A stretch of 64,000 nt of DNA from Aureliella helgolandensis. Lineage in GTDB: Bacteria > Planctomycetota > Planctomycetia > Pirellulales > Pirellulaceae. The stretch is taken from assembly GCF_007752135.1 (NCBI RefSeq), contig NZ_CP036298.1, positions 5,516,859 through 5,580,858 of the forward strand, in the 5' to 3' direction. The position numbers and the translations under genes were made by a program. Position 1 is the first letter of the stretch; the number at the start of each line of letters is the position of its first letter. A model generated the notes under the pieces. The model was not told where the DNA came from and made no database searches. It was given only the letters and a program-made list of their open reading frames with translations. Below are positions 3,889 to 42,100 of this stretch, piece by piece.

Positions 3889-3933
3889 ACATGTCTTTCC
3901 ACATTCAACCGAGAGACCAAGCCAGACCGACCG

Positions 3934-4557: not shown

Positions 4558-4729
4558 TATGCGCTACAGTACTTGCCGCTGAACTGGTCAGTGCCGTTAC
4601 ACTGTATTGTTGATTTCAGTGGCAGCAGACACCCACACTCCCCGTCGGTCGATATTGATCTCGTAAGACTGGCTCGTTGGAAAGCGGCAAGCACCCCATT
4701 CACCGAACTCGCGAGCTACGACACCATTC

Positions 4730-6002: not shown

Positions 6003-7558
6003 GCGGTCGAACAAAAGAGAAGCCGCCTGCTAGAGACGTCGTGCGGTGTGCAATTTACACACGCAAGTCGACGGAGGAGGGACTTGAGCAGGAGTTCAAT
6101 TCCCTCGATGCCCAGCGCGAGGCAGGGGAAGCGTACATCAAGAGCCAGCAGCATGAGGGCTGGGTGTGCGTGCCGGATGCGTACGATGACGGTGGATTCA
6201 CCGGCGCCAATATGGAACGTCCAGCTCTGCGACGACTGCTCTGCAACATCGAAGAGGGGAAGGTAGACTGCGTCGTCGTTTACAAGGTCGATCGACTGTC
6301 TCGCAACCTGATGGACTTCGGACGCATCATCGAAATACTCGACAGGCACAATGTGGCGTTCGTATCGGTAACTCAATCATTTAACACTTCGACATCGATG
6401 GGGCGACTGATCCTGAACGTGCTCCTGTCCTTCGCCCAGTTCGAACGGGAAATGATTAGCGAGCGCACCAGGGATAAAATTGCAGCCGCGCGACGCAAGG
6501 GCAAATGGTCTGGAGGCATGCCTGTCCTGGGCTACGATGTGGTCAATACAAAACTGGTGGTAGACGAATGCGAAGCAGGGCGGGTGCGAGAGATCTTTCG
6601 GCTGTACCTCGATCAACAATCCCTGTTGGACGTTGCCAAGGAAATCAACGCGCGGGGCTGGCGCACCAAGCGTTGGGTCACCAAGAAGTCCGAGGTGCGC
6701 GGTGGAAAGCTCTTCGACAAGGGTTCGCTGCATCGACTGCTAACCAACGTTGTCTACATCGGCAAGCTCACTTATAAGACTGAAGTCCATGAGGGCGAGC
6801 ATGAAGCCATCGTGGACCTTGATGCGTTCAACCAGGCTCAGGCGCTGCTTGAGCGGAATGGGAGAAGTGGTGGGCGAGAAGTCCGGAACAAGCACAATGC
6901 TCTATTGCGGGGCTTGATGCACTGCGGGGCCTGCGACTGCGGCATGAGCCATTCGTATTCCAAGAAGGGTAGCAAGCTCTACAGATACTACGTCTGCCAC
7001 AGGGCGCAAAAGCGGGGCTGGGAGGAGTGCCCTGCGCCATCACTCCCGGCGGGGGAGATTGAGCGATTCGTAATTGACCAGATTAAACGCATTGGCCGAG
7101 ATCCGGCCCTGATTCGCACCACGTTGGCGCAGGTGCAACGACAATCGGACGAGGAACTCCAACGCCTAGCGGCTGAGAAAACGGCACTGGGCCGCGATGT
7201 GCGGCAAGACTACGTCGAGGTTGGCAGATTGGCGGGTACCGCAATGGCTGGCGATCCAAGACTGTTGGAGGTTCAAACTCGAATCCGGGATGCTGAACGT
7301 CGGATGACCGTCATCGGAGAAGAGCTGGCATCGCTGAAATCGCAGGTGATTGATGAAAAGGACGTAGTAGCCTCCCTGGGGGAATTCGACAGCACCTGGG
7401 AAGCACTCGCACCACGGGAACAGGCCCGCGTACTGGAGTTGCTCATTGAACGAGTTACCTACGATGCCGACACCAGCACGCTGTCGATCACTTATCGACC
7501 AACCGGTATCAAGTCGCTGGCCAAGAAGGGTATTGATCGAATTGAGGAAGCAGCATGA
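5999..7558 (+). CDS. Large serine recombinase (resolvase/invertase N-domain, recombinase domain, zinc ribbon).
   Basis: N-terminal CAIYTRKSTEEG...SLDAQRE...VVVYKVDRLSRNLMDF catalytic-serine motif; central recombinase domain; Cys cluster CGACDCG...C...C. Confidence 0.9.
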   Translation: MSGRTKEKPPARDVVRCAIYTRKSTEEGLEQEFNSLDAQREAGEAYIKSQQHEGWVCVPDAYDDGGFTGANMERPALRRLLCNIEEGKVDCVVVYKVDRLSRNLMDFGRIIEILDRHNVAFVSVTQSFNTSTSMGRLILNVLLSFAQFEREMISERTRDKIAAARRKGKWSGGMPVLGYDVVNTKLVVDECEAGRVREIFRLYLDQQSLLDVAKEINARGWRTKRWVTKKSEVRGGKLFDKGSLHRLLTNVVYIGKLTYKTEVHEGEHEAIVDLDAFNQAQALLERNGRSGGREVRNKHNALLRGLMHCGACDCGMSHSYSKKGSKLYRYYVCHRAQKRGWEECPAPSLPAGEIERFVIDQIKRIGRDPALIRTTLAQVQRQSDEELQRLAAEKTALGRDVRQDYVEVGRLAGTAMAGDPRLLEVQTRIRDAERRMTVIGEELASLKSQVIDEKDVVASLGEFDSTWEALAPREQARVLELLIERVTYDADTSTLSITYRPTGIKSLAKKGIDRIEEAA

Positions 7559-7941
7559 TTCAGACTCAACACAAGATTCATTTCAAATCGGGAAGGCGCT
7601 CGCGTAAGGAACTGTCGGATGGGGTCGCCGTAGCTCAGCCAAAGGGTCGGCTGCCTCGCATTACCAAGTTGATGGCTCTGGCGATTCGTCTTGACCATCT
7701 CATCAAGACTGGGCAAGTAACCGATCAAGCAGAGCTGGCACGCGTGGGGCATGTATCGCGGGCGCGGCTCACTCAAATTATGAATCTGCTCTATCTGGCG
7801 CCGGACATCCAAGAGGAGCTACTGCACCTGCCAGTCACGGTGAACGGACAAGATGCAATGATTGAACGGGACCTGAGGGCGATTGCGGGGATGGCGAGTT
7901 GGAAGAAGCAGCGGTTAAAGTGGAAACGGATTCACTCGTAG
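7555..7941 (+). CDS. Small hypothetical HTH-like protein translationally coupled to the recombinase. It has a paralogue at 12401-12778.
   Basis: ATGA overlap with the recombinase stop. Shares ITKLxALAIxxDHLIxxGxVxxQAELARxGxVSRxRLxQIxNLLxLAPxIQ with ORF 12401-12778. Confidence 0.5.
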   Translation: MIQTQHKIHFKSGRRSRKELSDGVAVAQPKGRLPRITKLMALAIRLDHLIKTGQVTDQAELARVGHVSRARLTQIMNLLYLAPDIQEELLHLPVTVNGQDAMIERDLRAIAGMASWKKQRLKWKRIHS

Positions 7942-8139
7942 CAAAGTTTCAAGTTCCACTTGTGGATCTGCAGACTTACCGACTGTCGATCGGTGACCTC
8001 ATTTAGGCTATTTTTGGTGGGAGTTACAGCAGGCTTCCTACAACTATGATGAAGAGATGCAAACTGAACGGCAATCGGATTGCGGTTTTGCGTCTCGCTG
8101 GGGCCCACGGAGGTCGAGTTGCTAGGCCAAGGAGCAACG

Positions 8140-9057
8140 CTAGGTCAATCTTGCTGAAGGATCGCCAGGCTCGTTCTCTGGTAATGCCCCCGCTTCGACT
8201 ATCTCCTGTAGCTGCTCCAGAACGTCAGGATAGCCCTTCGATAAAAAACGGACAATTCTCGCGTTGTCGAGGAGCTTACGAAGGTAGCCTGTAATAATCA
8301 CCAAGTGAAGAACATTTTTGCCATGGGATCCCTCGATTGCCTTCAGCTCGCGAACTAGTACCCGAGACTCCTGCTCGATTCGGGCTAAATCGTCATTTGA
8401 CATAATCTCCGGTCCACTGTCTCGGACCGCATCAATTTGCAATTCAGCTGGAGTTGCAAAGACAAGGCATTTCATGTACCCAATCGAATAGTTGTGTGAG
8501 GCTGTCATTAGTTGGGCAATTTCTATTTGCCTGATCGGACGGACCTTTCGTAATTCTCTGATCGCTACTGCAGATGTGCGCTTACCGCGCAGTATATGAA
8601 TAGCTTCTTTACAGATGCCGTCGAGCAGGTCCCGCTTCTGACGGATTGAAGCAGGGTCAACATTGAGCGCCCTCGCGATTCGCTCCTCCGAGACGCCGTT
8701 CTTAATCGCCTTTAGTATCATGAAGTGCTCTTGGATCGCCGTTAGGCGATTAATTTTATGATTGAAAGTGAAGCCTTCGTCGTCGGTGGCTATGAGACAC
8801 TTGGCCTCTTTCGCCCCTAAATCAGAAAGAATCGCGTGCCGTATGTGCCCGTCCAATATCATGAACTGGCCCTCTAGCTGAGCCTGTGGGAAAACCACGA
8901 GTGGCTCAATAAGCCCAAGTTCCCTTATGGAAGCTTCAATACAGGAATACTTTGGTGTTTTGAGTAAGCCGGCCGACAAGATGCGGACTGGCAATAGGCT
9001 CGCAAGCGGCACGATGACGACTTCTGATTTACAAGCCAATTGGACTTTTTGATTCAT
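8140..9057 (-). CDS. ParB/Srx-fold (ParB N-terminal domain) protein with HTH, copy 2 of a tandem pair.
   Basis: VVIVPLASLLP...ELGLIEPLVV...FMILDGHIRHAI matches the ParB N-terminal nuclease/CTPase-like domain. HTH-like segment VSEERIARALNVDPASIRQ. Start overlaps the upstream ParB-like stop (ATGA). Confidence 0.7.
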   Translation of the reverse strand: MNQKVQLACKSEVVIVPLASLLPVRILSAGLLKTPKYSCIEASIRELGLIEPLVVFPQAQLEGQFMILDGHIRHAILSDLGAKEAKCLIATDDEGFTFNHKINRLTAIQEHFMILKAIKNGVSEERIARALNVDPASIRQKRDLLDGICKEAIHILRGKRTSAVAIRELRKVRPIRQIEIAQLMTASHNYSIGYMKCLVFATPAELQIDAVRDSGPEIMSNDDLARIEQESRVLVRELKAIEGSHGKNVLHLVIITGYLRKLLDNARIVRFLSKGYPDVLEQLQEIVEAGALPENEPGDPSARLT

Positions 9058-9950
9058 TTGTCTGTTCCGTCCTGACGAATGCGCTCGGCAAGCAACTGCG
9101 GCATTGAATCGAGTTGCTCCGCTTTCAAGAGCGTTTGGAACTGATCGTCCTTGTATAATTCGGTGAATGCTGAGATCGCCATTAGCAGTCGACTTTCGCA
9201 GGCCTTCGTCTTGCGGATCAGCATTTTTTGCCTGAGAGTTTCATCCTGATAGGTCTGCACCAACGACTTGCTTGTCACTCCATCTGCCGGTGTCTTTCTC
9301 ACCGACGATCTTGGGCGTTTCCCGCCATTTTGGCGCTGTTCAATGATGCGCTTAGCGCGCACAAGCGCGTCGCCCCGCAGTACGTTATTTTCATATGCTT
9401 CCTGGAGTGCAATCTGGACCCCCTTGTCGTCCGACGTTGCGATCACCACCGCGACACTCACAGCCAGAACCCCCTTTTCGATCGCAAGCAACAGACGCTC
9501 TTCTCCTTTCTCCAGGAGTTTCAGGAGTCCACGAATGTAGGTGACGTCAAGATCAGTCTTTTTCGCTATTTCACCCGCCGTGTATCCCCGTTCCTTGAGC
9601 ACACCGAGTTCGCGCACTAGTTCCACACCGGAATGTTTTCGTCGTGCCAAATTTTCAGCAAGACTCATCAGCATTAAATCTTCTTTTGCCCCTTCAGCAA
9701 TAATGCATGGAATTTCCTGCTGTTCGAGAGCGATATAAGCCTCGAGCCTACCCTGGCCGCAAACAAGGTTGTAAGCGAACGCATCATTCTTGATTCCTGC
9801 GGCGACTACCGTTACCGGCTTCTTTAATCCGATGGCTGCTATGTTAGATTTGATCTGGTCGAACTTCTTTCGGCCTCGCTCGCGTGGGTTCAGAACCGAG
9901 ATTTGTGCCACTGGAATCATTACAATATCGCTTCGAAACGTAACTGCCAA
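9054..9950 (-). CDS. ParB/Spo0J-like protein (ParB N-domain plus HTH), copy 1 of a tandem pair.
   Basis: IPVAQISVLNPRERGRKKFDQIKSNIAAIGLKKPVTV...GQGRLEAYIAL ParB box motifs; HTH YTAGEIAKKTDLDVTYIRGLL. No ParA-type ATPase is present nearby. Confidence 0.7.
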   Translation of the reverse strand: MAVTFRSDIVMIPVAQISVLNPRERGRKKFDQIKSNIAAIGLKKPVTVVAAGIKNDAFAYNLVCGQGRLEAYIALEQQEIPCIIAEGAKEDLMLMSLAENLARRKHSGVELVRELGVLKERGYTAGEIAKKTDLDVTYIRGLLKLLEKGEERLLLAIEKGVLAVSVAVVIATSDDKGVQIALQEAYENNVLRGDALVRAKRIIEQRQNGGKRPRSSVRKTPADGVTSKSLVQTYQDETLRQKMLIRKTKACESRLLMAISAFTELYKDDQFQTLLKAEQLDSMPQLLAERIRQDGTDK

Positions 9951-23388: not shown

Positions 23389-24570
23389 CTAGGCGGTTAT
23401 TTTGGTAACGACGCCGGAGCCTACTGTCTTGCCGCCTTCGCGGATGGCGAAGTGGTCGCCGGTGCTTAGGGCGATGGGTTGTAGCAAGTTGACTTGCAAC
23501 TGCACGCCGTCGCCGGGCATGGCCATTTGGACGTCGCCGATGACGTGGGTCTTGCCGGTGACGTTCGTGGTGCGGAAGAAGAATTGCGGCGTGTAGCCGT
23601 CGAAGAACGGAGTGTGACGTCCGCCTTCTTCCTTCTTGAGCACGTAGACTTCCGCTTCGAACTGGCGACGAGGTGTTACTGAGCCACGTGCGGCGAGCAC
23701 TTGGCCTTTGTGGACTTCGTCGTGAGCAGTCTTGCGAAGCAAACAACCAACGTTATCACCTGCTCGACCGGACTCGAGGATTTCGGCGAACGATTCGACT
23801 TGAGTGACGACGTCACTGACTGTCTGATCGGTCAAGCCGATGATCTCGATGGCGTCGCCGGAACGGACAATGCCTTGCTCGATCTTGCCCGTCACAACAG
23901 TACCGCGGCCGGCGATCGAAAACACGTTCTCAATAGGCATGAGAAAGGGCTTGTCGATCTGTCGCACCGGATCGGCAATCGTCGTATCTAGTGCCTGTAG
24001 CAGCTCGTTGATACAGGCGATCGAGTCCGCGTCGGTCGGGTTGTCGTGAGCCAACTTGGCTGAGCCGCGGATCACAGGCACTTCCGCGCCAGCGTAACCG
24101 TACTGCGTGAGCATTTCTCGCAAGTCGAGTTCAACTAGCTCCAGCAGCTCAGGGTCTTCGACCAAGTCGCACTTGTTCATGAACACGACCAAGTAGGGCA
24201 CGCCAACTTGACGCGCCAACAGGATGTGTTCGCGAGTCTGCGGCATCGGTCCATCAGCGGCCGAGACCAAGAGCACCGCGCCGTCCATCTGAGCCGCGCC
24301 GGTAATCATGTTCTTGATATAGTCGGCGTGACCAGGACAGTCGATGTGCGCGTACATTCGGCTCTCGGTTTCGTACTTGACGTGCGAAGCCAGGATCGTA
24401 ACAGTCTTGTTCTTGTCGCGAACAATGCCTCCCTTGGCGATGTCTTGATACGACTTCACCTTGGCCAAGCCCTTGGCTGCCTGGACGCGCAGCAATGCTG
24501 CCGTAAGTGTCGTTTTACCGTGGTCGATGTGACCGATGGTTCCGACGTTGACGTTCATTTTAGTAACCAT
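23389..24570 (-). CDS. tuf: Elongation factor Tu.
   Basis: [26 protein letters not shown]...[26 protein letters not shown]...NKCDLV and the rest are unmistakably EF-Tu. AAGGAGG RBS upstream of ATG at 24570. ORF-track Met at 24615 is an upstream in-frame extension. Confidence 0.95.
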
Positions 24571-24703
24571 AGCTCTAAACCTCCTTTGTCGAGGAAATAC
24601 ACACCCGCTGGCCAATCGCGAAGGTGAGCAGCCTCCGCAACCTTTTTGTGCACTCGCAGCGCCAGAGCAGCCGGCATGTCAAACGGAAAGGAACAAGTGG
24701 ATC

Positions 24704-27384: not shown

Positions 27385-29070
27385 TTATAGCTCGATCGCT
27401 TCAACTTCGGCGACGAAACGCTGGTTGTTGTCAGCGAGGAACGCACTGATGACGTTGAACACGGCGTCACTGAAGCCACCGATGTTCATGATGTCAGCTC
27501 GCTCGCAAGCTTGCGTTGTTTGATACGGCTGGATGTCGATGCAAACAAGCTTTGTGTTCGCGTCGCGGCCGGCCAACTTGCGTTGGTTGGCTACGAAGGC
27601 TTCCCACGCCGTCATTACACCAGTCGATCCGTGACGGCCCGTTCCAACCCAACTCTCGTTGTCGCTGACCAGTACAACTCCCGCAAACTTGCGTTCGCGG
27701 TGCAGCACATTGGCAGCTTCTAAAGGTAGAGCACAGTTGGTTCCACCGCCTCCGTACTTGCTCAGTCGCTCGGCGATGCTGAGGATCGAATCGCTTGGAG
27801 CGATGCGCACATCGTAAGCTTGAGTGTCGAACGGAATGACAACGCTGTCCGGGTTGCGACGCAGGATGGCTGCGGCGAACAAGGCGGCGACGTCGACGCA
27901 GCGCATCTTCGAAGTAGCTCCACGGCCACGGTTACCCGTAACGGCGCATCCCATCGAACCTGACGTATCCAGACCGATTAGGACCGGACCAGGTAATTCA
28001 GGCACGTTTCCGCACGCGATCTCGGCTGCCTTGTGCAAAGCGGCCTTGATCTTGGCTGGCATCTGGTCGTCAGTGTTCACATACGCAGCAAAGTACTGGT
28101 ATGGGAACTGACGTGAGCGAGCCACTTCAGCAGCGTCGGCGATGCGATCGGCAACATAGTCGACCATATTGTGGCACGGCGGTCCCCCGCCGTGATCTTC
28201 GGTGGGGACCACCGAGCTACGTTCAAACACATCGTGACGTAGCAGAGTGTTCAAGTTCATGCGTAGTGCCTGCGGTCCCATCTTACGAGCGATCGCAGCC
28301 CACACGCTCGGCCCCTTGGCAGCATCGGCGAGCAAGTCCCAGCGGACACCCGCTAGTTCCCCCATAACGAGCAACTGAGTCGCTTCGTCTGTGGCTGCGC
28401 GGTAGGCTGCTATTGCTTGCACCTCGGCTGGCAAGTTGGCCTCGCCGGCAGGAGTCCACTTTTCGATGGCCTTATCCGTCAACCAACCGAACAGCGCTCG
28501 ACGCTCGTCGTCCTTCGGAGTCGGACGAGCCATACGCAGGATATCGCGCAGGCTCGGCTCGTTGCCGATAGACGCCGACAGTAACTTTGCGACTGAGGCT
28601 TCGTTCAACCATCGCTGGAAGGCACGCTGCACGGAGCTCGAAAGTCCCGTTCGCGCAATTCCAGCTCGGTTCTTGAACTGGCCAGAGCGGATCATCTGGA
28701 ACGTGGTTCGCAGCACGCGTCCGTTGTCGACTACGCGATCGAACACTCGATGCATCAGTTCTGTGTTGCGGACCGAAAGGGCGACCAGCAACGCGGCTGG
28801 CATGTCCTTCATGGCTGCCTTCTGCCGAGCGTACACAGCCAGCTTGGCCAGGTACTGGTCGTCGTCGATGGTATCGATCAACTTCAGCACTTCTCCGAGC
28901 TGCGTTCCCGCAGTTGAGTAGTAGGCATCGCCAAACGTACCGGTTGCGGCAACTTGGGCCAGCGCCTGCTTCGGTTCGAGCGTGTAGGCTCGACCACCTG
29001 CTTCGTTGACAGTGTCGGCGCGTGGCAGCCGCGAAGACTTGCTTGAGAATAGTGACATGTTAGCCATGGA
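27385..29070 (-). CDS. rsr: Ro60-like ribonucleoprotein Rsr (TROVE domain plus C-terminal vWA with MIDAS).
   Basis: TROVE helical repeats, then vWA with MIDAS-like [10 protein letters not shown]...SDNESW. The start is probably the Met of [12 protein letters not shown] at 29070 or 29061 (ORF-track start 29208 is less likely). Confidence 0.75.
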
Positions 29071-29459
29071 TTCGTCCAGACTGAGCGGCAATGCGCTAGC
29101 GGCCGGTTCTGGCAATACAACGCCTGAAGAACCGACGGCTAGCGCCTCGTCGCTCAAAAAACTGTTCGACGAAGGGTAGTTGAGAAAGGCTTTCGCCATC
29201 TTAAGCAAAGATGTAATCCCAACTGGCAGTCGAACGAGAATCGCAAAGTAGATCGAAGCACTACGCTTCGTCCGCTTCCCCTATTTCATTTGTTTGTATC
29301 TATGCGAATAGAGACTCGCTTTCATCATCAAGGTTCACAGAAAAGCGACTGACGAAGTGTGACCAGAGCGCCATGACGACGTGCGTCAATTGATAGCTCC
29401 CGCTATCGCGGCTAAAGGGTGGGGATGTACTCCGAGTCGGCAGTCAGTCGTGGACGATT

Positions 29460-29825
29460 CTATTTGCGTTTCGACTTCAGCATCTTTCGCATTCGTTTCC
29501 ACACGCTGCGACCACTTTCGGGGTCCAACCGGACAAGCTGCTGCCGTCGCGTGTCGATGGTGTGTAGCTTGCCAGGTGGACGCTTGGCGTATACGAAGGG
29601 CAAGCAAACTGCGATGACCTTAAATGGTTGACCTGCCTCACGCGCCATATATCGCGAGCGTACTGGTTCATCCGGCGGTAATGTAGAGCTGGAACAGCAC
29701 CACAGGAACGACGGCAATTCGAAGACTTCATTCAACACAGTGACGTAGTCGCCGCGTTTAATGTCTTCTCCCGCGATCCGTGCTGCGACGGTGGTGTGCG
29801 ATTTGGGTTGCGTTTTTGTTTTCAT
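29460..29825 (-). CDS. Hypothetical basic protein.
   Basis: ORF only; Lys/Arg-rich termini. Confidence 0.3.
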   Translation of the reverse strand: MKTKTQPKSHTTVAARIAGEDIKRGDYVTVLNEVFELPSFLWCCSSSTLPPDEPVRSRYMAREAGQPFKVIAVCLPFVYAKRPPGKLHTIDTRRQQLVRLDPESGRSVWKRMRKMLKSKRK

Positions 29826-30701
29826 GGTTTTACATAGCTGTTTGAGAGAGTGGATTTGTACGTGTGCAGGTTCTTCGTCCGACGCTCGATTACTCGGCGC
29901 CGGTTGGCATAATCACGAAGAATCTGAATTGCACACGCATGGTTCACTCTTTGACAGTAATGTGGAAAACGAATGATGGTTTGAAAGCTAGCCAGACGGT
30001 GAGCTAATCGAAGTTCGCAGTGGGAAGATTCAATCCAGCTCCCTAAAAGTACTCGTCGCGATTGGAGCCATCAAAAACGGCCCGATCGCAGACAGCAGTT
30101 CTTGAAGCGTTGTCTGCTGCCACACGGGCATGGATCGTTGCGGCCTAGTTTTTCCTCGAGTAGCTTGTCGCCGTGGACAATCTGCACGCCGCGTTTGACG
30201 TTCGTCTCCGAAGGGTAGCCGCGTCGGCGTTTACTCATCGGTTCGAAAAAAGGAATCTTGAAGGTTGTTGTCGCGAATGATAGAGCTCCTAGTGAACACT
30301 GAGCGGTACGGCGCTAGCCGCCGGTTCTAGTAAGATCAGAAGAATCGAGATCAGAAGAACCGAGGGCTAGCGCCCAATCGCTCACAATAGAAAGAAAATG
30401 ACTCGCCACGACAGTTGCCTATCGCGGCGAGTCGTAACAATGCAAATGAACGAAGTGGTTTGTTCAGATACTTTTGGTGTTGGTTAATGTAATCCGAACA
30501 GGCAGTTCAAATGCCAGAGCCGACGACTGGATTCGCACCAGCATTGATCTGTTTACAAGACAGATGCCTTTCTCAGTCGAGCCACGTCGGCAAGAGCAGT
30601 CTATAGGTGTTGGCCTGTAGACTGAAGTATGAGAGACCTAAAGACGATTCGGGGTTCACGCTCGCATGTAAAGAATTCAACTTATTTGAACCATTGGTCG
30701 C

Positions 30702-32995: not shown

Positions 32996-33075
32996 TTGGT
33001 GCATCGACGGGAGTCGAACCCGTGACCGTCAGGTTATTAGCCTGATGCTCTACCCGCTGAGCTACTTCAATCGGT
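32996..33075 (-). tRNA. tRNA-like unit, anticodon loop reads AAU. Acceptor stem does not pair canonically (pseudo-tRNA?).
   Basis: T-arm ACGGG-AGTCGAA-CCCGT (RC), anticodon arm TCAGG-TTATTAG-CCTGA, D-arm present; 5' and 3' acceptor halves are non-complementary. Confidence 0.3.
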
Positions 33076-33318
33076 GTTGCTTTTAGAACCCGTTCACGGA
33101 ACACAGTACGCCAACTGCCGAAAGGCAGGGCAGTCTGCGCCGCCGGAACAACATCGACCAAATGCTTACTTACAAGCAGGAATGCAGTGGTTCGAACACT
33201 GTCCATCGGTTTTGGAGGCCGAGTCCGCTCCCAGGCGAACATTCCTGTATTGTGAACGGTTCGGCGCTAGCCGCCGGTATCGAAACCGAAGGCTAACGCC
33301 TATTCGCTCAGTCACAAA

Positions 33319-33984
33319 CTATGTTTCCAATTCAACGTTCCAGTACGCTTCGCTGATAAACTTGTTCCAGCTCTGGATGCGATTCATGCGCTGGGCATAG
33401 ATCGGCTTCCAATTCGGACGGACCGGTTGCTTGCGAAGCTTCATGCGAGCTTCGGCCGGCGTGCGATCTGCCTTGCGAGAATTGCAATCAACGCAAGCTA
33501 GAACGCAGTTGGTCCAGCTTGACTGGCCACCTTGAGCACGAGGAACAACGTGGTCGATCGTCAGCTCTTCGCCACCAGGCTGCTTGCTACAGTACTGGCA
33601 GGTCAGCTTGTCGCGCTTGAACACGTTGCGACGGCTGAACGTTACCGACTGCGTCGGCAATTGGTCGAACTTAGTAAGGGCGATCACTTCAGGCACGCGA
33701 AACTTCTGACGCACTGACTGAATGAACGGTTGGTCGCGATCTGGCACCAACTGGCTCCAATCGCTCCAGTCAAATAACTGGTAGTCCACCGGATCGACTA
33801 CCTTGGCGGAGTCGTTCCACAGCAGGATCAGCGCACGAGCGACCGTGGCCACATTGATCGGCTGCCAGTTGCGGTTTAGTACCAGCGTCGGAAGCTGGAG
33901 CGTCGGGCTCAAGCCCATGAAGTTCGTCTGTCGATCCAGATTTGCAGTGTTCACGTCAATTAGTCCATGTGATTTGAAGTCCAA
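33319..33984 (-). CDS. HNH endonuclease-domain protein.
   Basis: CQYCSKQPGGEELTIDHVVPRAQGG...NCVLACVDCNSRK has the HNH zinc-finger/His-Asn-His pattern. Confidence 0.7.
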   Translation of the reverse strand: MDFKSHGLIDVNTANLDRQTNFMGLSPTLQLPTLVLNRNWQPINVATVARALILLWNDSAKVVDPVDYQLFDWSDWSQLVPDRDQPFIQSVRQKFRVPEVIALTKFDQLPTQSVTFSRRNVFKRDKLTCQYCSKQPGGEELTIDHVVPRAQGGQSSWTNCVLACVDCNSRKADRTPAEARMKLRKQPVRPNWKPIYAQRMNRIQSWNKFISEAYWNVELET

Positions 33985-34097
33985 AGTGTTGAGTAAACTG
34001 TGTAAAAGGGACTCGCGTTAATAGGTGATTGTTCACGAAAATAATGCATGGAAAAACACTCAACGAAGTAATGGTCAGAGGTTAGCCCGTCCGAAAA

Positions 34098-34450
34098 TGA
34101 GCAAGCGGACGGAGCGGGGTTTGAACCCGCTCAATCTTGCGATTGACTTCCATGTACTCCGAGCCGTCAGTTGAGCATATATTGGTTCACTTGACGAAGT
34201 TGTGGACAGAGATCCGGCCCGTATATCAGTACGAGCGGGCCGGGCGAGATTCGAACCTGCTAAACCATGTACTCCGAACCGGCAGTCAAGTGAGTGTATG
34301 TTTTATGATCGACGAAGTGATGTGTCAGAGGGTTTACGGCGCTCTACCACTGAGCTACGGCGCAATGTTTCAAAACAAAGTCGCGCCGGTGGGACTCGAA
34401 CCCACGACATCCGGCTTATAATGCTGTACTCCAACTCGGCAGTCGATCAA
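34098..34450 (-). other. Three tRNA-like fragment units (T-arm plus hairpin, or D-arm half) that cannot be folded into canonical cloverleaves. Each carries the motif TGTACTCCGA-YCGGCAGTC.
   Basis: Good T-arms (GCGGG-GTTTGAA-CCCGC; GTGGG-ACTCGAA-CCCAC) and a perfect 5' half GCGCCGTAGCTCAGTGGTAGAGC, but no matching acceptor partners. Includes a GNRA-capped hairpin TCAATC-GCAA-GATTGA. Confidence 0.5.
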
Positions 34451-34451
34451 G

Positions 34452-34523
34452 TAGCCCGACCAGGAATCGAACCTGGGACTTCTCGTTAGAAGCGAGAAAT
34501 GATGTCCGTTTCACCACCGAGCT
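34452..34523 (-). tRNA. tRNA-Arg (anticodon UCU).
   Basis: Acceptor AGCUCGG/UCGGGCU (two G-U), T-arm CCAGG-UUCGAUU-CCUGG, anticodon loop CUUCUAA, discriminator A. Confidence 0.55.
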
Positions 34524-34696
34524 ATCAACAAGCGGAAGGCAAGGGAGTCGAACCCTCATCTCTAAACGAGAACCGCGTTAGCAGTGCGGCCCAGCAAACC
34601 GTATCTGGCTACCTTCCAAAACAGGCTTGAGACTGGAGACCGGAGGCTGTAGTAAAATCCCTACAGCCTCTCGCCTCAAGCCTCCCGCCTACTAAG

Positions 34697-34767
34697 AGGT
34701 TCGTTCGAGAATCGAACTCGATCTTCGTTCTTACCAAGAACGCGTGCTCCCGGAACACTTACAAACC
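34697..34767 (-). tRNA. tRNA-Thr (anticodon GGU).
   Basis: Acceptor GGUUUGU pairs ACGAACC, D-arm GUGU/GCAC, anticodon loop UUGGUAA, T-loop UUCGAUU. Confidence 0.65.
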
Positions 34768-34850
34768 CCAAAGTAATGGGCACACTCCGCTGTGCCGTGA
34801 CCTACAAAACCAGCGGACGGCAGAACGGAGTCTGCCTGCTACTATGTGAT
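34768..34850. repeat. Copy 1 of an 85-nt structured spacer element containing an imperfect inverted pair of hairpins (GGCACACTCCGCTGTGCC ... GGCAGAACGGAGTCTGCC).
   Basis: About 80% identical to 35612-35697; the two hairpins are reverse complements of each other. Confidence 0.6.
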
Positions 34851-34919
34851 CGCGGATGGAATCGAACCATCGGTCTCCTGCGTGTCATGCAGGCGTCTTA
34901 GCCGCTGGACCACGCGATC
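34847..34919 (-). tRNA. tRNA-Val (anticodon GAC).
   Basis: Perfect acceptor GAUCGCG/CGCGAUC, U8, D-arm, anticodon loop AUGACAC, T-arm GAUGG-UUCGAUU-CCAUC. Confidence 0.65.
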
Positions 34920-34929
34920 GTTTACTCAG

Positions 34930-35004
34930 TAGTCGAGACAGGAATCGAACCTGCAGAATCACCTGGCCCTCGACCAGATCGCTTTACCTGTTTGCGTACT
35001 CGAC
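34930..35004 (-). tRNA. tRNA-like unit with non-canonical anticodon loop (UCGAGGG, would read GAG); possibly pseudo.
   Basis: Acceptor and T-arm pair; C33 instead of U33 in the anticodon loop. Confidence 0.3.
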
Positions 35005-35085
35005 CGTCAGTAAGTGGCGGGTCCAGGAATCGCACCTGGCAGTCCAAGCTTATGAGGCTCGGATGAACACTAGCCCACCCGCGAG

Positions 35086-35153
35086 TTGCAAGCCCCGGAA
35101 TCGAACCAGGCGACCGACCGTATGAAAGTCGACTCAGTACCAACTAGCCTGCA
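35086..35153 (-). tRNA. tRNA-Met-like (anticodon CAU) with shortened D-arm.
   Basis: Acceptor UGCAGGC/GCUUGCA pairs, anticodon loop UUCAUAC, T-loop UUCGAUU; only about 14 nt between U8 and the anticodon stem. Confidence 0.4.
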
Positions 35154-35165
35154 GACTTTACGAAG

Positions 35166-35248
35166 TCACGAAGAGGAGATTCGAACTCCTACGCCTTGAT
35201 GGCACGACGTTCTGAGCGTCGCATGTCTACCAGTTCCATCACTTCGTG
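35166..35248 (-). tRNA. tRNA-Leu (anticodon CAG), class II with long variable arm.
   Basis: Acceptor CACGAAG, D-arm GAUGGAACUGGUAGACAU (Leu-like), anticodon loop CUCAGAA, 14-nt variable hairpin, T-loop UUCGAAU. Confidence 0.65.
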
Positions 35249-35255
35249 TTGTTAG

Positions 35256-35330
35256 TGACTCGGACCGGAATTGAACCGGCGTCGACCAGCTTGAGAGGCT
35301 AGTTGCAAGTACCAAACATCGCACCGAGCC
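35256..35330 (-). tRNA. tRNA-Glu (anticodon CUC).
   Basis: Acceptor and T-arm (UUCAAUU loop) pair; anticodon loop CUCUCAA. Confidence 0.5.
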
Positions 35331-35345
35331 ATATTGTTCGTTCAG

Positions 35346-35426
35346 TGAGCCGGGAAGGAATCGAACCTTCCGCGCCGCGAGGCAACTGTGTTACAGACAG
35401 CCTGGACTACCAAGTCCAACCGACTC
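35346..35426 (-). tRNA. tRNA-Tyr (anticodon GUA), class II.
   Basis: Acceptor GAGUCGG, D-arm GGAC-UUGGUA-GUCC, anticodon loop CUGUAAC, 14-nt variable arm, discriminator A. Confidence 0.65.
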
Positions 35427-35438
35427 GTTTCAACCAAG

Positions 35439-35512
35439 TGACGCAGGCGGGATTCGAACCCGCAATCGCGAAGGTTTAAGCTTCGCCGCTGTACCTGTTC
35501 GCGTACCGCGTC
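35439..35512 (-). tRNA. Class I (5-nt variable region) tRNA with anticodon UAA (Leu-type codon UUA).
   Basis: Acceptor GACGCGG/CUGCGUC (one G-U), anticodon arm CGAAG-CUUAAAC-CUUCG, T-arm GCGGG-UUCGAAU-CCCGC, discriminator A. Confidence 0.55.
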
Positions 35513-35535
35513 AATTAAAAACCTGTCAACTGTAG

Positions 35536-35609
35536 TGGTGAGGGTGGGACTCGAACCCACAAACACTGAGGTTTGAGCTCAGCCGCTATGCCAATTAGCG
35601 CACCGCACC
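35536..35609 (-). tRNA. Class I tRNA with anticodon CAA (Leu-type codon UUG).
   Basis: Acceptor GGUGCGG/CCUCACC (6/7), U8, D-arm CGCU/AGCG, anticodon loop CUCAAAC, 5-nt variable region, T-loop UUCGAGU. Confidence 0.55.
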
Positions 35610-35611
35610 AT

Positions 35612-35697
35612 AAAAAGTAGTAGGCACACTCCGCTGTGCCGCAACTCGTCACACTTGCGAACGGCAGAGCGGAGTCAGCCTGCCACTATTGAGTAGC
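35612..35697. repeat. Copy 2 of the 85-nt structured spacer element (see 34768-34850).
   Basis: Shares GGCACACTCCGCTGTGCCG ... ACGGCAGAGCGGAGTCAGCCTGC with copy 1. Confidence 0.6.
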
Positions 35698-35775
35698 TCG
35701 CCAAGGAATCGAACCTTGTCTAACAGTTTCGAAGACTGTCGTGCGAATCCATCACACTCGCAAGCCGTGTATCTT
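35695..35775 (-). tRNA. tRNA-Arg-like (anticodon UCG); acceptor register uncertain.
   Basis: T-arm CAAGG-UUCGAUU-CCUUG, anticodon arm ACAGU-CUUCGAA-ACUGU. Confidence 0.4.
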
Positions 35776-35794
35776 CATCTCGCATTTGTAAAAG

Positions 35795-35867
35795 TGTCCA
35801 TGTCAGGAATCGAACCTGATCTTCGACCTTCGCAGGGTCGCGTGCGCATCCACTACACTTCACAGAC
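35795..35867 (-). tRNA. tRNA-Arg (anticodon GCG).
   Basis: Acceptor GUCUGUG/CAUGGAC (two G-U), anticodon loop CUGCGAA, T-loop UUCGAUU. Confidence 0.6.
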
Positions 35868-35874
35868 ATATCAG

Positions 35875-35947
35875 TGGTGCGGGTGAGATTCGAACTCACA
35901 GACACTTGTTCCTAAGACAAGCCGCTCAGCCGTTGGCGTACCACACC
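35875..35947 (-). tRNA. Class I tRNA with anticodon UAG (Leu-type codon CUA).
   Basis: Acceptor GGUGUGG/CCGCACC, U8, anticodon arm CUUGU-CUUAGGA-ACAAG, 5-nt variable region, discriminator A. Confidence 0.55.
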
Positions 35948-35956
35948 GAATTGAAG

Positions 35957-36028
35957 AGGCGCTACCGAGATTCGAACTCGTTGTCAGCGTGTTTTGCAGA
36001 CACACCCCGCACCAAGCGGATTAGCGCC
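35957..36028 (-). tRNA. tRNA-Cys (anticodon GCA).
   Basis: Perfect acceptor GGCGCUA/UAGCGCC, discriminator U (as in Cys), anticodon loop CUGCAAA. Confidence 0.6.
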
Positions 36029-36036
36029 ACTTTCAG

Positions 36037-36109
36037 TAGTCCTGGACGGACTCGAACCGTCGATCGTCTGTTTGTAAAACAGAAGCCTTCGCCGCTAGGC
36101 CACAGGACT
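36037..36109 (-). tRNA. tRNA-Val (anticodon UAC).
   Basis: Perfect acceptor AGUCCUG/CAGGACU, U8, D-arm GCCU/AGGC, anticodon loop UUUACAA. Confidence 0.65.
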
Positions 36110-36126
36110 ATGTATTTCAAATAAGG

Positions 36127-36210
36127 CGGAAGACCAGGGACTCGAACCCCGAAGCGGTATCAGCGCCAGCCGTTTTCAAGACGGTTTCCTCATCCAGCCG
36201 GATGTCTTCC
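36127..36210 (-). tRNA. tRNA-Ser (anticodon UGA), class II.
   Basis: Perfect acceptor GGAAGAC/GUCUUCC, discriminator G, anticodon loop CUUGAAA, long variable arm. Confidence 0.6.
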
Positions 36211-36222
36211 AATAATGCAAAG

Positions 36223-36295
36223 CGCCCTTAACGAGGATCGAACTCGCCGCGAACTGATCGACAATCAGCCTCCACCACCAGATGGACTCAAGGGC
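36223..36295 (-). tRNA. tRNA-Asp (anticodon GUC).
   Basis: Acceptor GCCCUUG/UAAGGGC, discriminator G, D-arm UGGA/UCCA, anticodon loop UUGUCGA. Confidence 0.6.
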
Positions 36296-36309
36296 ATACA
36301 GTTAAACAG

Positions 36310-36383
36310 GGTGACCGATCGGAATTGAACCGACATGGACTTGGTTCACAGCCAAGTTCCTGAACCAATACAGGACGACCACC
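36310..36383 (-). tRNA. tRNA-His (anticodon GUG) with encoded G-1.
   Basis: Anticodon loop CUGUGAA; extra 5' G opposite discriminator C, the His-specific G-1:C73 pair. Confidence 0.65.
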
Positions 36384-36398
36384 ATCTTCAAAGTGCAG

Positions 36399-36472
36399 CA
36401 GCGGGGACAGGAATCGAACCTGCGACCTTCTGGTTCAGAGCCAGATGCGACTACCAACAGTTGCTACCCCGG
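36399..36472 (-). tRNA. tRNA-Gln-like (anticodon CUG); 5' acceptor strand not confidently placed.
   Basis: T-arm and anticodon arm UCUGG-CUCUGAA-CCAGA clear; discriminator G. Confidence 0.4.
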
Positions 36473-36493
36473 AATGTGAATTAAAATATAGAG

Positions 36494-36565
36494 CACGGGT
36501 GATAGGAATCGAACCTACATACCACTGCTTCAAAGGCAGCTGACTTGCCGTTAGTCGACACCCGA
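36494..36565 (-). tRNA. tRNA-Gln (anticodon UUG).
   Basis: Acceptor pairs (CACCCGA partner), U8, anticodon loop CUUUGAA, discriminator G. Confidence 0.55.
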
Positions 36566-36741
36566 ATGTTGATTTGGAGCTAAGAGTGCCATGTCGGAGT
36601 CGAACCGACCTGACCGGATTGGAAGTCTTTTTCACGTTGCTTCAGACTGGTTAAGGTTGGGGAGAGAAGCGTTCCCCAAAATCAAACTTCCCAGCGACGC
36701 GTAAAAGCCTTTGCCGCTCGGTCAATGGCACATTCATGAAG

Positions 36742-36816
36742 CTCCGGAGGCAGGAATCGAACCTGCGGCTAAGCGATTAACAGTCGCCCTCCCGTACCAG
36801 CACAGGACCCACCGGA
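36742..36816 (-). tRNA. tRNA-Asn (anticodon GUU).
   Basis: T-arm GCAGG-UUCGAUU-CCUGC, anticodon loop CUGUUAA, discriminator G, acceptor 6/7. Confidence 0.6.
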
Positions 36817-36832
36817 ATGTTTTTCACAAGAG

Positions 36833-36907
36833 TCAGGATGGTCGGATTTGAACCGACGGTCTCGTGCTCCCGAAGCACGCGGAGTAGCCAGACTTTCCCA
36901 CACCCTG
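36833..36907 (-). tRNA. tRNA-Pro (anticodon CGG).
   Basis: Acceptor CAGGGUG/CAUCCUG, U8, anticodon loop UUCGGGA, T-loop UUCAAAU. Confidence 0.6.
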
Positions 36908-36918
36908 AGTTACATTAG

Positions 36919-36992
36919 TAGCGGGAGACGGACTCGAACCATCGACCTCCAGGGTATGAACCTGGCGAGCTGACCAACTGCTCCATCCCGCG
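36919..36992 (-). tRNA. Initiator-type tRNA-fMet (anticodon CAU).
   Basis: 5' CGCGGGA with unpaired C1 opposite U72 (the initiator hallmark), anticodon arm CCAGG-UUCAUAC-CCUGG, D-arm GAGC/GCUC, discriminator A. Confidence 0.55.
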
Positions 36993-36993
36993 A

Positions 36994-37064
36994 AGCGCCT
37001 AGTGAGAATTGAACTCACGTTTTCTGCATGGCAAGCAGATGGGTTACCACTACACCATAGGCGC
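36994..37064 (-). tRNA. tRNA-Gly (anticodon GCC).
   Basis: Perfect acceptor GCGCCUA/UAGGCGC, discriminator U, anticodon loop UUGCCAU. Confidence 0.6.
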
Positions 37065-37133
37065 GATTATTTCGGATCTACCAAATTGTCAAAGATCAGT
37101 TTGTGTTCACGGAATTGTCAATTCAATGAACAG

Positions 37134-37204
37134 AGCACCGAGTGAGAATCGAACTCACGCCGCCGCTTTACGAAAGCGGTGTCATTCCACTAGACTATCA
37201 GTGC
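37134..37204 (-). tRNA. tRNA-Thr (anticodon CGU).
   Basis: Acceptor GCACUGA/UCGGUGC (one G-U), anticodon arm CCGCU-UUCGUAA-AGCGG. Confidence 0.55.
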
Positions 37205-37226
37205 TTGTGTGTTTCAGTTTTCGCAG

Positions 37227-37298
37227 TGGGACCGGTGGGAATTGAACCCACATCGTTCGGTTTAAGAGACCGATGCATTACCTTGTCTGCCACAATCC
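37227..37298 (-). tRNA. tRNA-Lys (anticodon CUU).
   Basis: Acceptor GGGAUUG/CGGUCCC (two G-U), U8, anticodon loop CUCUUAA. Confidence 0.55.
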
Positions 37299-37310
37299 CG
37301 TTTGTTTCAG

Positions 37311-37384
37311 TCGGCGTGGAGGGAATTGAACCCTCGACCTTCGTCTTATAAGGACGGTGCTCGGACCATCGAGCTGCACGCCGC
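37311..37384 (-). tRNA. tRNA-like with anticodon UAU (Ile/AUA-type). The anticodon stem has one A-C mismatch.
   Basis: Perfect acceptor CGGCGUG/CACGCCG, D-arm GCUC/GAGC, anticodon loop CUUAUAA. Confidence 0.4.
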
Positions 37385-37395
37385 TTGCTTAAGAG

Positions 37396-37467
37396 TGAGG
37401 CCGGAGAGATTCGAACTCTCACCTGGCGGATTAAAAGTCCGCAGTGCTGCCGTTACACCACAACCTC
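37396..37467 (-). tRNA. tRNA-Lys (anticodon UUU).
   Basis: Anticodon arm GCGGA-CUUUUAA-UCCGC, T-loop UUCGAAU, acceptor with G-U pairs. Confidence 0.5.
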
Positions 37468-37541
37468 GGGTTGGCTATGGCTATGCGTTTCAAACGAATT
37501 GGCAATTGCATCACGATCTCCTTAGTTGTTTGTCGTTTCAG

Positions 37542-37613
37542 TGGTAGCCCTGAGAATCGAACTCAGCGCCACTCGGTTATCAGCCGGGTATGAGCAACCA
37601 GCTCTCGACTACC
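37542..37613 (-). tRNA. tRNA-Ile (anticodon GAU).
   Basis: Anticodon loop CUGAUAA, T-arm CUGAG-UUCGAUU-CUCAG, acceptor 6/7. Confidence 0.5.
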
Positions 37614-37624
37614 ATTTCATGAAG

Positions 37625-37696
37625 TCGGGTGTGTCGGAATCGAACCGCTCTCGATCGTCCCAAACGATCTGTGCTAGCCATTACACTTCACGCCCG
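37625..37696 (-). tRNA. tRNA-Pro-like (anticodon UGG) with weak T-stem (3 bp).
   Basis: Anticodon arm GAUCG-UUUGGGA-CGAUC; acceptor 6/7. Confidence 0.4.
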
Positions 37697-37712
37697 ATAG
37701 TTGTTATGTCAG

Positions 37713-37785
37713 TGGACCTGCAGGGAGTTGAACCCTGAAGCCTTGAGTGCAAGTCAAAGCGCCGACCCGTCGGCAAGCCCATCCT
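37713..37785 (-). tRNA. tRNA-Ala-like (anticodon UGC); acceptor poorly paired and lacks G3-U70.
   Basis: T-arm CAGGG-UUCAACU-CCCUG, anticodon loop CUUGCAC. Confidence 0.35.
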
Positions 37786-37796
37786 TAGTTGCAAAG

Positions 37797-37869
37797 CGAC
37801 TCGTGTGGGATTCGAACCCAACCTGACTGGCTTGAAAGACCAGTGACCTCACCAGAAGTCGAACGAGCC
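37797..37869 (-). tRNA. tRNA-Glu (anticodon UUC).
   Basis: Acceptor GGCUCGU/ACGAGUC, discriminator G, anticodon loop CUUUCAA. Confidence 0.5.
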
Positions 37870-37971
37870 ATGTTGTTTTCTCAGTTCTGTCAGCGCGTAC
37901 CTTCCACGCAGTTGTTCATCAGGAGTTTTTGCCTAAGCCGTTTGCGACTGCTTCCTATGCATCACAGTGAG

Positions 37972-38043
37972 TGGACTGGGAGGTGCTCGAACCCTCCTCT
38001 GCGGTTCTTCAGACCGCCGCTATACCGTCTCAGCTACCAGTCC
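37972..38043 (-). tRNA. tRNA-Phe (anticodon GAA); last unit of the array.
   Basis: Perfect acceptor GGACUGG/CCAGUCC, anticodon arm GCGGU-CUGAAGA-ACCGC, T-loop UUCGAGC. Confidence 0.5.
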
Positions 38044-41284: not shown

Positions 41285-41399
41285 TCGATTACGGTCTCTT
41301 CAGTCGGGTAACGGCGGCCATAACCCAGTCGCCGAAGTTGATTTTGATGTAACTAAACACAAGACCGGCGACTTGGGGTGAGTAGAGCGAGCTCTCTCT

Positions 41400-42100
41400 T
41401 TCAAGTTTAACATAAAGCTTGGACTTGATCGATTGAGCGTCGCCCCCTCCCAGAACCGGACGTGCGCCGTTAACGCATCCGGCTCCCCACGTTGGCCTTC
41501 CCGAAACGACAAGACGTTTCGATCTGCTATAAGGAATCAGTTGCATTGCTATCTGGCTCTGTGTCCAGACAATGCTGACGCCTTATCGCCGCCATCCGCT
41601 TGGCCGCCTTCCCTCCACCAGAGTTACCCGGCTTCAACGGTACTATGCAGCCTTCCGACTTCCTTTGCTCGTTTCCAAGCCTCTCCTTTTCAGATTGGTG
41701 ATGAATACTTGAACGAGCACAACTGCACGTGCAAGAAGCAAAGGATCTCACTGGTTGCCTTGAAAACATAATGTGTAACGCGACTGGGCCTTCGACCCCG
41801 GGTCTCTGAATATCGCTTGCCAAAACGCGATAGTCAGTATTGCCTTCCAGTATGAACAAACCTTGGGCAGGAGCCAACAGTCACCAAATTTCGGAGCTCA
41901 ATCTCGTTCAGGGCGGGACGGCCAGTCCCTACCTTTCATCCTCGCTAACTTTCTTGACTACACATCAACCGACGACTTCGGCACAGTGTCTTATACCTCG
42001 GTGCAAGCCTAGATACTGAGCCTGTGGCTAACAGCTGCTCAGTCGGGAGTTACACTCGCTAGTCATTCAAACATCTCCAGTTCGATTCGTTCATGCGATG
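41400..42100 (-). mobile_element. Degenerate, ORF-less group II intron derivative with internal deletion: retains the 5' domain I end, the RT N-terminal stub, and domains V/VI.
   Basis: Domain V GAGCCGGATGCGTTAACGGCGCACGTCCGGTTCT (41450-41490, minus strand). The 5' region is about 80% identical to the 5' region of the intact intron at 57580-57822. ORF 41527-41877 matches only the first roughly 110 aa of the RT. Confidence 0.55.

Follow-up and report, generated by a model that had tools for sequence, protein, structure and literature searches.

Bacterial Y RNAs lie within about 4 kb of rsr and on the same strand, and each species carries at least two of them, of which one mimics a tRNA and another is a simple hairpin (Chen et al., 2014; PMC4201824). 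As a class they are RNAs of 80–150 nt whose ends join in a long stem with the Ro60 site, and which Rsr binds and stabilizes in vivo (Chen et al., 2014). YrlA occurs in Salmonella, M. smegmatis, and >250 species, and in M. smegmatis YrlA and YrlB are cut from one precursor upstream of rsr; the same study cautions that Infernal searches may take tandem tRNAs for YrlA (Chen et al., 2014; PMC4201824). Long tRNA arrays of the L type, described in Anabaena (trn operon) with induction under translational stress and a neighboring homing endonuclease, are found in several phyla that include Planctomycetes (Santamaria-Gomez et al., 2021; PMC8421152). In the literature that we searched, no paper treated Y RNAs or Ro60 in Planctomycetes (the supplement of Chen et al., 2014 may list some YrlA copies), none linked Y RNAs or Ro60 with tRNA arrays, and no report of a tRNA-array/Y RNA/rsr linkage was found.

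We analyzed a 64,000-nt stretch of the Aureliella helgolandensis genome (hereafter, the window) that contains an rsr gene and a long tRNA array upstream of it. Our main reading, to which we assign a probability of roughly 0.85, is that five paralogous Y RNAs of the bacterial class are encoded on the rsr strand of the window and that they are all built on one platform predicted to bind the Ro60 homolog. This reading follows the published pattern of same-strand genes, several per species, one of them tRNA-like, with a common precursor that lies upstream of rsr (Chen et al., 2014; PMC4201824). The partnership of Ro60 with Y RNAs is thus known in kind; the planctomycete family is unannotated and unusually diversified.

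A Repeated Motif Encloses Five Modules on the rsr Strand

The 20-mer TGTACTCCGAGTCGGCAGTC (29426–29445, plus-strand letters) has copies with at most three mismatches at only three other sites in the 64-kb window (Table 1), where the number of matches expected by chance is 0 (100 dinucleotide shuffles). All copies share one orientation, that of the minus strand, and as RNA the motif reads GACUGCCG....GGAGUACA. An earlier note on this DNA, made from the letters alone, had reported this recurrence in three units of the tRNA array, and it is confirmed here with 3, 2, and 2 mismatches (the copy placed there at 34151 is that at 34153). A fifth copy, with an indel, is found in module E (GACUGCCAGUUGGGAUUACA, 29212–29231). 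In all five units a second conserved block (CUCUG..CA..CUUC-GUC) follows 50–130 nt downstream of the 5′ motif, and each unit is enclosed by a perfect closing stem of 7–9 bp whose sequence differs between units. A relaxed structural scan of both strands returned exactly five such units (modules A–E), all on the minus strand: D and E 97–383 nt upstream of rsr, and A–C about 5 kb upstream on the same strand. Their common 5′ and 3′ motifs unite the element upstream of rsr and the three array units as one family, as the earlier note had supposed.

TABLE 1. Features of the window around rsr and the tRNA array. "Ro-site helix" denotes the bulged terminal helix predicted to hold the Ro60 site; closing stems are given as 5′ strand / 3′ strand.
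Feature	Position	Strand	Closing stem	Description
rsr (Ro60 homolog)	27385–29067	−		560 aa, MANMSLF...; assigned by Pfam, 2NVO alignment, and conserved start
Extra leader segment	29068–29163	−		~96 nt, long hairpin; between module E and the rsr ATG
Module E	29164–29235	−	GUUCGAC / GUCGAAC	72 nt, minimal; in the rsr leader; overlaps the start of the mechanical ORF
Module D	29346–29450	−	CGACUGAC / GUCAGUCG	105 nt; Ro-site helix, inner domain, two hairpins, no tRNA-like arm
121-aa ORF	29460–29825	−		Conserved; ends 9 nt before module D; basic C-terminal tail
55-aa ORF	30071–30238	−		SEC-C/SWIM motif; in at least 15 rsr loci
Further tRNAs downstream of the array	30517–30591, 33176–33246, 33006–33065 (partial)			
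HNH endonuclease	33319–33984	−		Directly after modules A–C; in at least 15 rsr loci
Module C	34057–34177	−	UGCUCAAC / GUUGAGUG	121 nt; Ro-site helix, small hairpin, T-arm, 8-bp hairpin
20-mer copy	34153–34172			3 mismatches
Module B	34187–34293	−	UCACUUGAC / GUCAAGUGA	107 nt; Ro-site helix, T-arm-like hairpin, 8-bp GC hairpin, no D arm
20-mer copy	34268–34287			2 mismatches
Module A	34306–34449	−	UGAUCGAC / GUCGAUCA	144 nt, YrlA-type; V, T, AS (7 bp), and D arms on the Ro-site helix
20-mer copy	34425–34444			2 mismatches
34-tRNA array	34451–38043	−		Directly upstream of modules A–C

From the ends inward, the platform consists of the closing stem, an asymmetric loop or bulge (5′ UGCC opposite 3′ CA..CUUC), and an upper stem of 7–9 bp in which 5′ G....GGAG pairs with 3′ CUCUG..C. 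Both stems are predicted in all five units (72–144 nt), and it is this platform, not the interiors, that the paralogs have in common. When each sequence is folded singly, A, B, and D reach only modest z-scores (−1.0 to −1.9); the values are −2.85 for C and −2.9 for E. Only module A, which starts 1 nt after tRNA-Arg(tct), combines T arm, AS stem, and D arm in a permuted tRNA-like domain; B and C lack the D arm and keep a T arm beside an AS-like hairpin, and D and E have none of these. The most diverged motif copy belongs to module C. Module D combines the 5′ motif GACUGCCGACUCGGAGUACA (the 20-mer of the earlier note) and the 3′ motif CUCUGGUCACACUUC with an inner domain, UCCCCACC, and two hairpins closed by GCC/GGC, and its interior includes a UCCACC stretch. 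Module E reads GUUCGAC-UGCC-AGUUGGGA-UUACA...UCUCAACU-ACCCUUC-GUCGAAC, followed by AGUUUUUU, the motif pair within it being GACUGCCAGUUGGGAUUACA ... UCUCAACUACCCUUC.

None of the units A–E is called as a tRNA by ARAGORN, and Rfam tRNA gives only sub-threshold fragments (15–21 bits) that span unit boundaries; the three array units (34057–34449), each with a T-arm-like hairpin, are therefore not canonical tRNAs, as had been proposed. The 20-mer itself was read as tRNA-like in the earlier note, and this does not hold: it is the 5′ strand of the bulged terminal helix, the strand of the putative Ro60 site. Likewise, the T-loop-like GUUCGACUGCC placed at 29236–29254 is not a T-loop; it lies at 29225–29235 and forms the first 11 bases of module E, that is, the closing-stem strand and the beginning of the fifth motif copy. 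The interval 29209–29459, taken there for a tRNA mimic of the Y RNA class, comprises one complete Y RNA (D) and the 5′ part of another (E). The class was right and the mimicry was not, since unit D has neither T- nor D-arm and no Rfam YrlA or tRNA match at E ≤ 10.

Module A Is a Divergent Relative of YrlA

A search with the Rfam YrlA model (RF02553), which the earlier note had proposed as a check, gave a local match on unit A (34335–34413; model positions 23–87, which span the T, AS, and D arms; 42.2 bits, the threshold being 69) and nothing for 29100–29470, the region of D and E, where Rfam at E ≤ 10 returned only noise (ZNFX1-AS1_3 and sroD). A YrlA-like tRNA mimic is therefore present nearby, as unit A, and covariance models do not confine the motif to ordinary tRNA pseudogenes. 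With sister units elsewhere, the YrlA model aligns end to end and reaches up to 60.6 bits. The Rfam alignment places YrlA CGAAUGC on the planctomycete (C/U)GACUGC, AcUuGuc on CUUCGUC, and the upper-stem strands on each other. In place of the published GNCGAAN0-1G (or the metazoan GGUCCGA), the sequences here run NNCGACUG / NNUGACUG and then CCG(A/G), with ..CGACUG / ..UGACUG; six of seven positions of the YrlA motif match, the motif's second A being a C here. By sequence, the planctomycete RNAs appear as divergent relatives of YrlA with the same layout that score below the curated threshold.

The Platform Is Conserved and Covaries across Planctomycete rsr Loci

The comparison set comprised 80 loci retrieved with the Rsr protein, all of them from Planctomycetota, mostly Pirellulaceae, at 64–91% identity. 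The 5′ motif occurs about 199 times in these loci, nearly always upstream of rsr and on its strand, and 162 of the copies also have the 3′ block and a closing stem of 5–16 bp, which bears out the tie between Y-RNA-type genes and rsr that the earlier note had drawn. Units were collected on condition of at least five closing pairs, a choice that partly favors pairing at the inner five positions of the closing stem; the three outermost pairs, free of this selection, are formed in 81, 94, and 98% of units. Across 133 distinct units, 96.6% of the cells of an 8-bp closing stem are paired (75.7% in shuffles), double changes occur at seven of the eight pairs with up to six pair types per position, and the covariation score (0.64 vs. 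0.23) collapses when the partner strand is slid by 1–3 columns.

An ungapped register search for the upper stem was messy owing to its bulges, and alignments of single subtypes were used instead. Among 23 A-type orthologs, compensatory changes are found in 21 of 36 pairs (upper stem and V, T, and AS arms). D-type orthologs, which form the rsr-proximal unit in a more distant clade, show a covarying closing stem and two covarying inner hairpins (12 of 23 pairs); only these elements were used, as the 3′ side of this subtype was out of register and RNAalifold therefore mis-paired GGA/UCC in place of the upper stem. In 28 E-type orthologs the Ro-site helix is nearly invariant while the apical hairpins vary and covary, the small apical hairpin showing UA vs. 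GC at 13:13. Each subtype retains its own closing-stem sequence across its clade.

A run of at least four U follows 91 of the 162 modules (56%, against a background of 2.3%), and many modules stand in tandem, 7–13 nt apart. Together, the tandem modules and the U-runs fit a polycistronic precursor that is processed, or leakily terminated, module by module. A scan of 28900–30700 gave no sigma-70-like promoter and a consensus terminator scan called none of the modules, both scans being uninformative for Planctomycetes.

Beyond these loci, a metagenome scan with the E-type motif gave 58 contigs: 37 with rsr downstream, six too short, one from which rsr has apparently been deleted, nine with a larger, further Y subtype, and five chance matches. 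The larger subtype (L089, L090, L098, L104, L106, L109, L123, L127, and L129) is a sixth Y-type module, with the platform GACUGCCCGUUGGGAGUACA ... CUCUCGGCAAnCCUUC, a closing stem of 7–12 bp, and a conserved interior of ~200 nt (..GGUCUUAAAGUAGCGACGCCGGGCGACCGGCUAGUGAACGG..) without Rfam match; further Y modules come after it. A scan of viral contigs with the motif gave five matches, of which three are chance matches in coding DNA, one is a Pirellula-like array fragment, and one is real. The last (L083; IMG/VR, 162 kb) carries at 3930–9102 a Y module with T and AS arms, four tRNAs, and a Ro60 homolog of 42% identity, consistent with a phage-borne set of Ro60 and Y RNA. Several metagenome-assembled genomes have two distinct rsr loci, each with its own Y modules (L001/L002, L003/L028, L010/L055, L011/L026, L012/L013, L014/L079, and L042/L051), which may be paralogous copies, a mobile island, or mixed strains.

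The rsr Gene and Its Leader

Pfam assigns vWA_Ro60 (2e-15) and TROVE (1e-7), the domain of the HEAT-repeat ring, to Rsr, and the protein aligns to D. radiodurans Rsr (PDB 2NVO) over residues 10–544. NCBIfam RNA-bind_Rsr aligns over its full length with 69 bits against a cutoff of 900, a score so far under the cutoff that we regard Rsr as a divergent homolog.

In most loci the proximal module ends 18–27 nt before the rsr ATG, and the conserved Shine–Dalgarno sequence (SD) and start follow directly. Because no room is left for a promoter between the proximal module and the ATG, rsr is probably transcribed through the Y module(s). The window departs from this spacing by an extra leader segment, whose hairpin is GCGCUAGCCGUCGGUUCU...AGAACCGGCCGCUAGCGC; it occurs only in the window and one other locus (L001), and with ~94 nt in a third (L002). 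Three further loci (L012, L013, and L034) have a different insert of similar length between the proximal module and rsr. The SD of the window rsr is weakened (GGACGAA). A hairpin after module E that would sequester the SD was considered and dropped, as the GGAG...CUCC pairing is found in some loci only.

Alternative Readings of the Modules and of the Leader

The units could be decayed tRNA genes or artefacts of tandem tRNAs, the 20-mer being a repeat left over from duplication within the array. Modules A–C do lie at the end of the array and have T-arm-like hairpins, a truncated tRNA-like sequence is present at 33006–33065, and tandem tRNAs can pass for YrlA in Infernal searches (PMC4201824). 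Yet unit A has an AS stem with 7 bp of self-complementarity, which would not be expected of adjacent tRNAs and which together with the enclosing, covarying platform excludes a tandem-tRNA artefact for that unit; the 20-mer and its 3′ partner enclose every unit with covarying stems, D and E lack any tRNA feature, the subtypes are conserved across genera at 64–91% Rsr identity, and it is the platform alone that the paralogs share and not their interiors. We therefore give almost no credence to tRNA decay. Only slightly more can be said for the notion that the modules are mere intrinsic terminators or insulators of the tRNA operon and the rsr leader, without protein binding, which we consider very unlikely. 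In its favor is the enrichment of a stem followed by a U-run (56% vs. 2.3%), but a terminator would need neither a conserved 20-nt bulged motif, nor a 3′ motif, nor a tRNA-like interior; besides, the consensus terminator scan calls none of the modules, the tandem spacing of 7–13 nt and the position before the rsr SD imply inefficient termination, and the modules are homologous to YrlA.

At the rsr leader, two readings concern module E in particular. In the first, 29164–29208 (from TTG 29208 or from ATG 29199) would encode an N-terminal extension of Rsr and module E would be a coincidence of codons. A mechanical ORF does run from 29208 in frame with rsr, but in about 55 homologous loci the gene begins with ATG-GCC-AAC-AAG (MANK) behind a GGAGG SD 6–10 nt upstream, many of them have in-frame stops 9–18 nt upstream of this ATG, the upstream stretch is conserved as RNA structure and not as protein, and the short form aligns with D. 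radiodurans Rsr from its residue 10 onward. From the start, SD, and stops in these loci we place the rsr start of the window at ATG 29067, with the extension to 29208 non-coding and module E, which runs into the stretch that the earlier note had read as rsr, in the leader; a coding extension is virtually certain to be wrong. A different case is the possibility that module E (perhaps also D) acts mainly in cis, as a putative Ro60-binding operator or attenuator of the rsr leader, with release of a free Y RNA still compatible. Ro60 on its own mRNA would then control U-tract termination, SD access, or leader stability, an autoregulation by molecular mimicry such as that of ribosomal-protein operons. 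Consistent with this, E is minimal, its Ro-site helix bearing hardly any effector domain; throughout the Pirellula clade the module next to rsr is E, which ends 18–27 nt before the AUG in the order stem, U-run, SD, AUG; its Ro-site helix is nearly invariant while its apical hairpins vary and covary; and metagenomic E-type copies have rsr 93–203 nt downstream in 37 of 58 contigs (six being too short), the sole genuine copy without rsr being the locus where rsr looks deleted. On the contrary, M. smegmatis YrlB and D. radiodurans Yrn2 are likewise short and rsr-adjacent and are bound in trans (PMC4201824), U-runs follow most modules and not E alone, every subtype keeps its closing-stem sequence across the clade so that invariance of E is not special, and literature searches not directed at autoregulation gave no paper on Ro60 autoregulation. 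A mainly cis role for E seems unlikely to us.

The preferred reading remains that of five Y RNAs. Judged by sequence, the platform would correspond to the bulged helix with which known Y RNAs bind Ro60, and it would bind the product of 29067–27385. The rsr transcript would pass through the Y modules, and these would presumably be cut from the precursor, as are YrlA and YrlB of M. smegmatis. The apical domains—a permuted tRNA-like cloverleaf in A, a T-arm and acceptor-like hairpin in B and C, UCCACC and two hairpins in D, and almost nothing in E—may, to judge from D. radiodurans and Salmonella, link Ro60 with different partners or control entry to its cavity.

The tRNA Array and Neighboring Genes

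The window has 37 tRNA genes on the minus strand between 30.5 and 38 kb, and the array and modules A–C likely form a co-transcription unit. Linkage to tRNA genes was counted in the 39 rsr loci whose upstream sequence extends over 5 kb or more. In 17 of them the Y modules are preceded by 10 or more tRNAs on the same strand, and in another 11 by 1–9. Arrays of 10–36 tRNAs are seen, besides the window, in L004, L008, L021, L022, L034, L041–L043, L049, L050, L056, L064, L074, and others; L042 is compact, with array, four Y modules, and rsr within 4.7 kb. In the Pirellula clade, a pair of tRNA-Trp(cca) and tRNA-Thr(tgt) stands before the proximal Y units. The partial tRNA at 33006–33065 (minus strand), uncalled by ARAGORN, matches Rfam tRNA at 51.5 bits (positions 7–64) with D, anticodon, and T arms and without acceptor stem, and is either a truncated tRNA gene or another tRNA-like element.

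Several protein genes accompany the linkage (Table 1). Homologs of the 121-aa ORF are present in at least 13 rsr loci, always just upstream of a Y module, and it may be a further component of the system; Pfam, NCBIfam, and PHROGs contain no family for it, and AlphaFold, run without an alignment, gave a model of no use (pLDDT 38.5). Some 3 kb beyond rsr there is a full-length EF-Tu gene (23389–24615, minus strand). Two group II intron RNA domains are found upstream of the array on the same strand (41377–42052 and 57533–57787, minus strand); they match Rfam group-II-D1D4-6 (126 and 87 bits) and also Intron_gpII.

That tRNA arrays, Y RNAs, and rsr are linked is an observation, and a conjecture can be built on it: that Y RNAs and rsr are the tail of an L-type tRNA-array transcription unit in Planctomycetota, with Ro60–Y RNPs as its quality control and module E as a site of Ro60 autoregulation. 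The tRNA-like Y RNAs might then be made and processed alongside a supernumerary tRNA set, the RNPs might serve as a dedicated quality-control or decay device for array tRNAs or for damage under translation stress, and E might let Ro60 sense its own free pool. We offer this functional coupling and autoregulation as a conjecture only, possible though on balance doubtful.

Irrespective of that conjecture, the locus, together with about 80 relatives, bears on what bacterial Ro60 and Y RNAs act on and on why one Y RNA mimics a tRNA. It reveals a phylum-wide Y RNA repertoire of at least five conserved subtypes on one putative Ro-site platform, below all Rfam gathering thresholds, and comparison of these subtypes is a natural way to assign partners to the individual apical domains. 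With a minimal module at a fixed place in its leader, rsr lends itself to a direct test of Ro60 autoregulation, and the recurrence of array, Y RNAs, and rsr side by side suggests that the system operates in tRNA metabolism or under translational stress. In the annotation, the start codon of rsr is corrected and three unfoldable tRNA-like units of the array are explained.

Comparison with Known Y RNAs and tRNA Arrays

The nearest described relative is YrlA. As with YrlA, the RNAs are encoded upstream of rsr on the same strand, have a terminal helix with a conserved 5′ motif (CGAAUGC in YrlA, CGACUGC here), and, in unit A of the window and 37 orthologs, a permuted domain of T, AS, and D arms; the AS stem of 7 bp in unit A resembles that of M. 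smegmatis YrlA, where this feature is linked to RNase P cleavage (PMC4201824). They differ in that all planctomycete copies score 31–61 bits, below the gathering threshold of 69, in the motif variant (CGAC/UGAC instead of CGAA), in a longer AS loop, and in that units D and E are wholly without the tRNA-like domain.

In layout, the shorter modules recall YrlB of S. Typhimurium and M. smegmatis and Yrn2 of D. radiodurans, for which Rfam has no model; these are likewise a second or third Y RNA beside rsr from the same precursor and combine a Ro-site helix with a simple hairpin. M. smegmatis YrlB retains a T-arm, as units B and C do, and Yrl1 and Yrl2 of Thermus phage phiLo are likewise located upstream of the Ro60 gene. 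Unlike in these systems, up to five subtypes occur here per locus, each conserved across the phylum, and in most genomes a fixed distance of 18–27 nt separates E from the start of rsr. Metazoan Y RNAs (RF00019) similarly pair their 5′ and 3′ ends in a bulged helix with the Ro60 site, end in a 3′ U-tract, and form paralogs with different loops. The hY1 strands 5′ CUGGUCCGA / 3′ CACUUGAC resemble 5′ CUG-CCGA / 3′ CACUUCGUC here. In contrast to the metazoan RNAs, those described here have no Rfam Y_RNA match, a different bulge layout, tRNA-like interiors, and presumably bacterial transcription and processing.

Among tRNA arrays, the closest parallel is the Anabaena L-array, likewise a long same-strand array (~20–37 tRNAs) with an adjacent HNH/homing endonuclease, for which a role under translational stress with RNA repair (rtcB) has been proposed (Santamaria-Gomez et al., 2021; PMC8421152). 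While Ro60 and Y RNAs are not mentioned for that system (PMC8421152), in planctomycetes the array is followed by Y RNA genes and rsr (17 of 39 loci).
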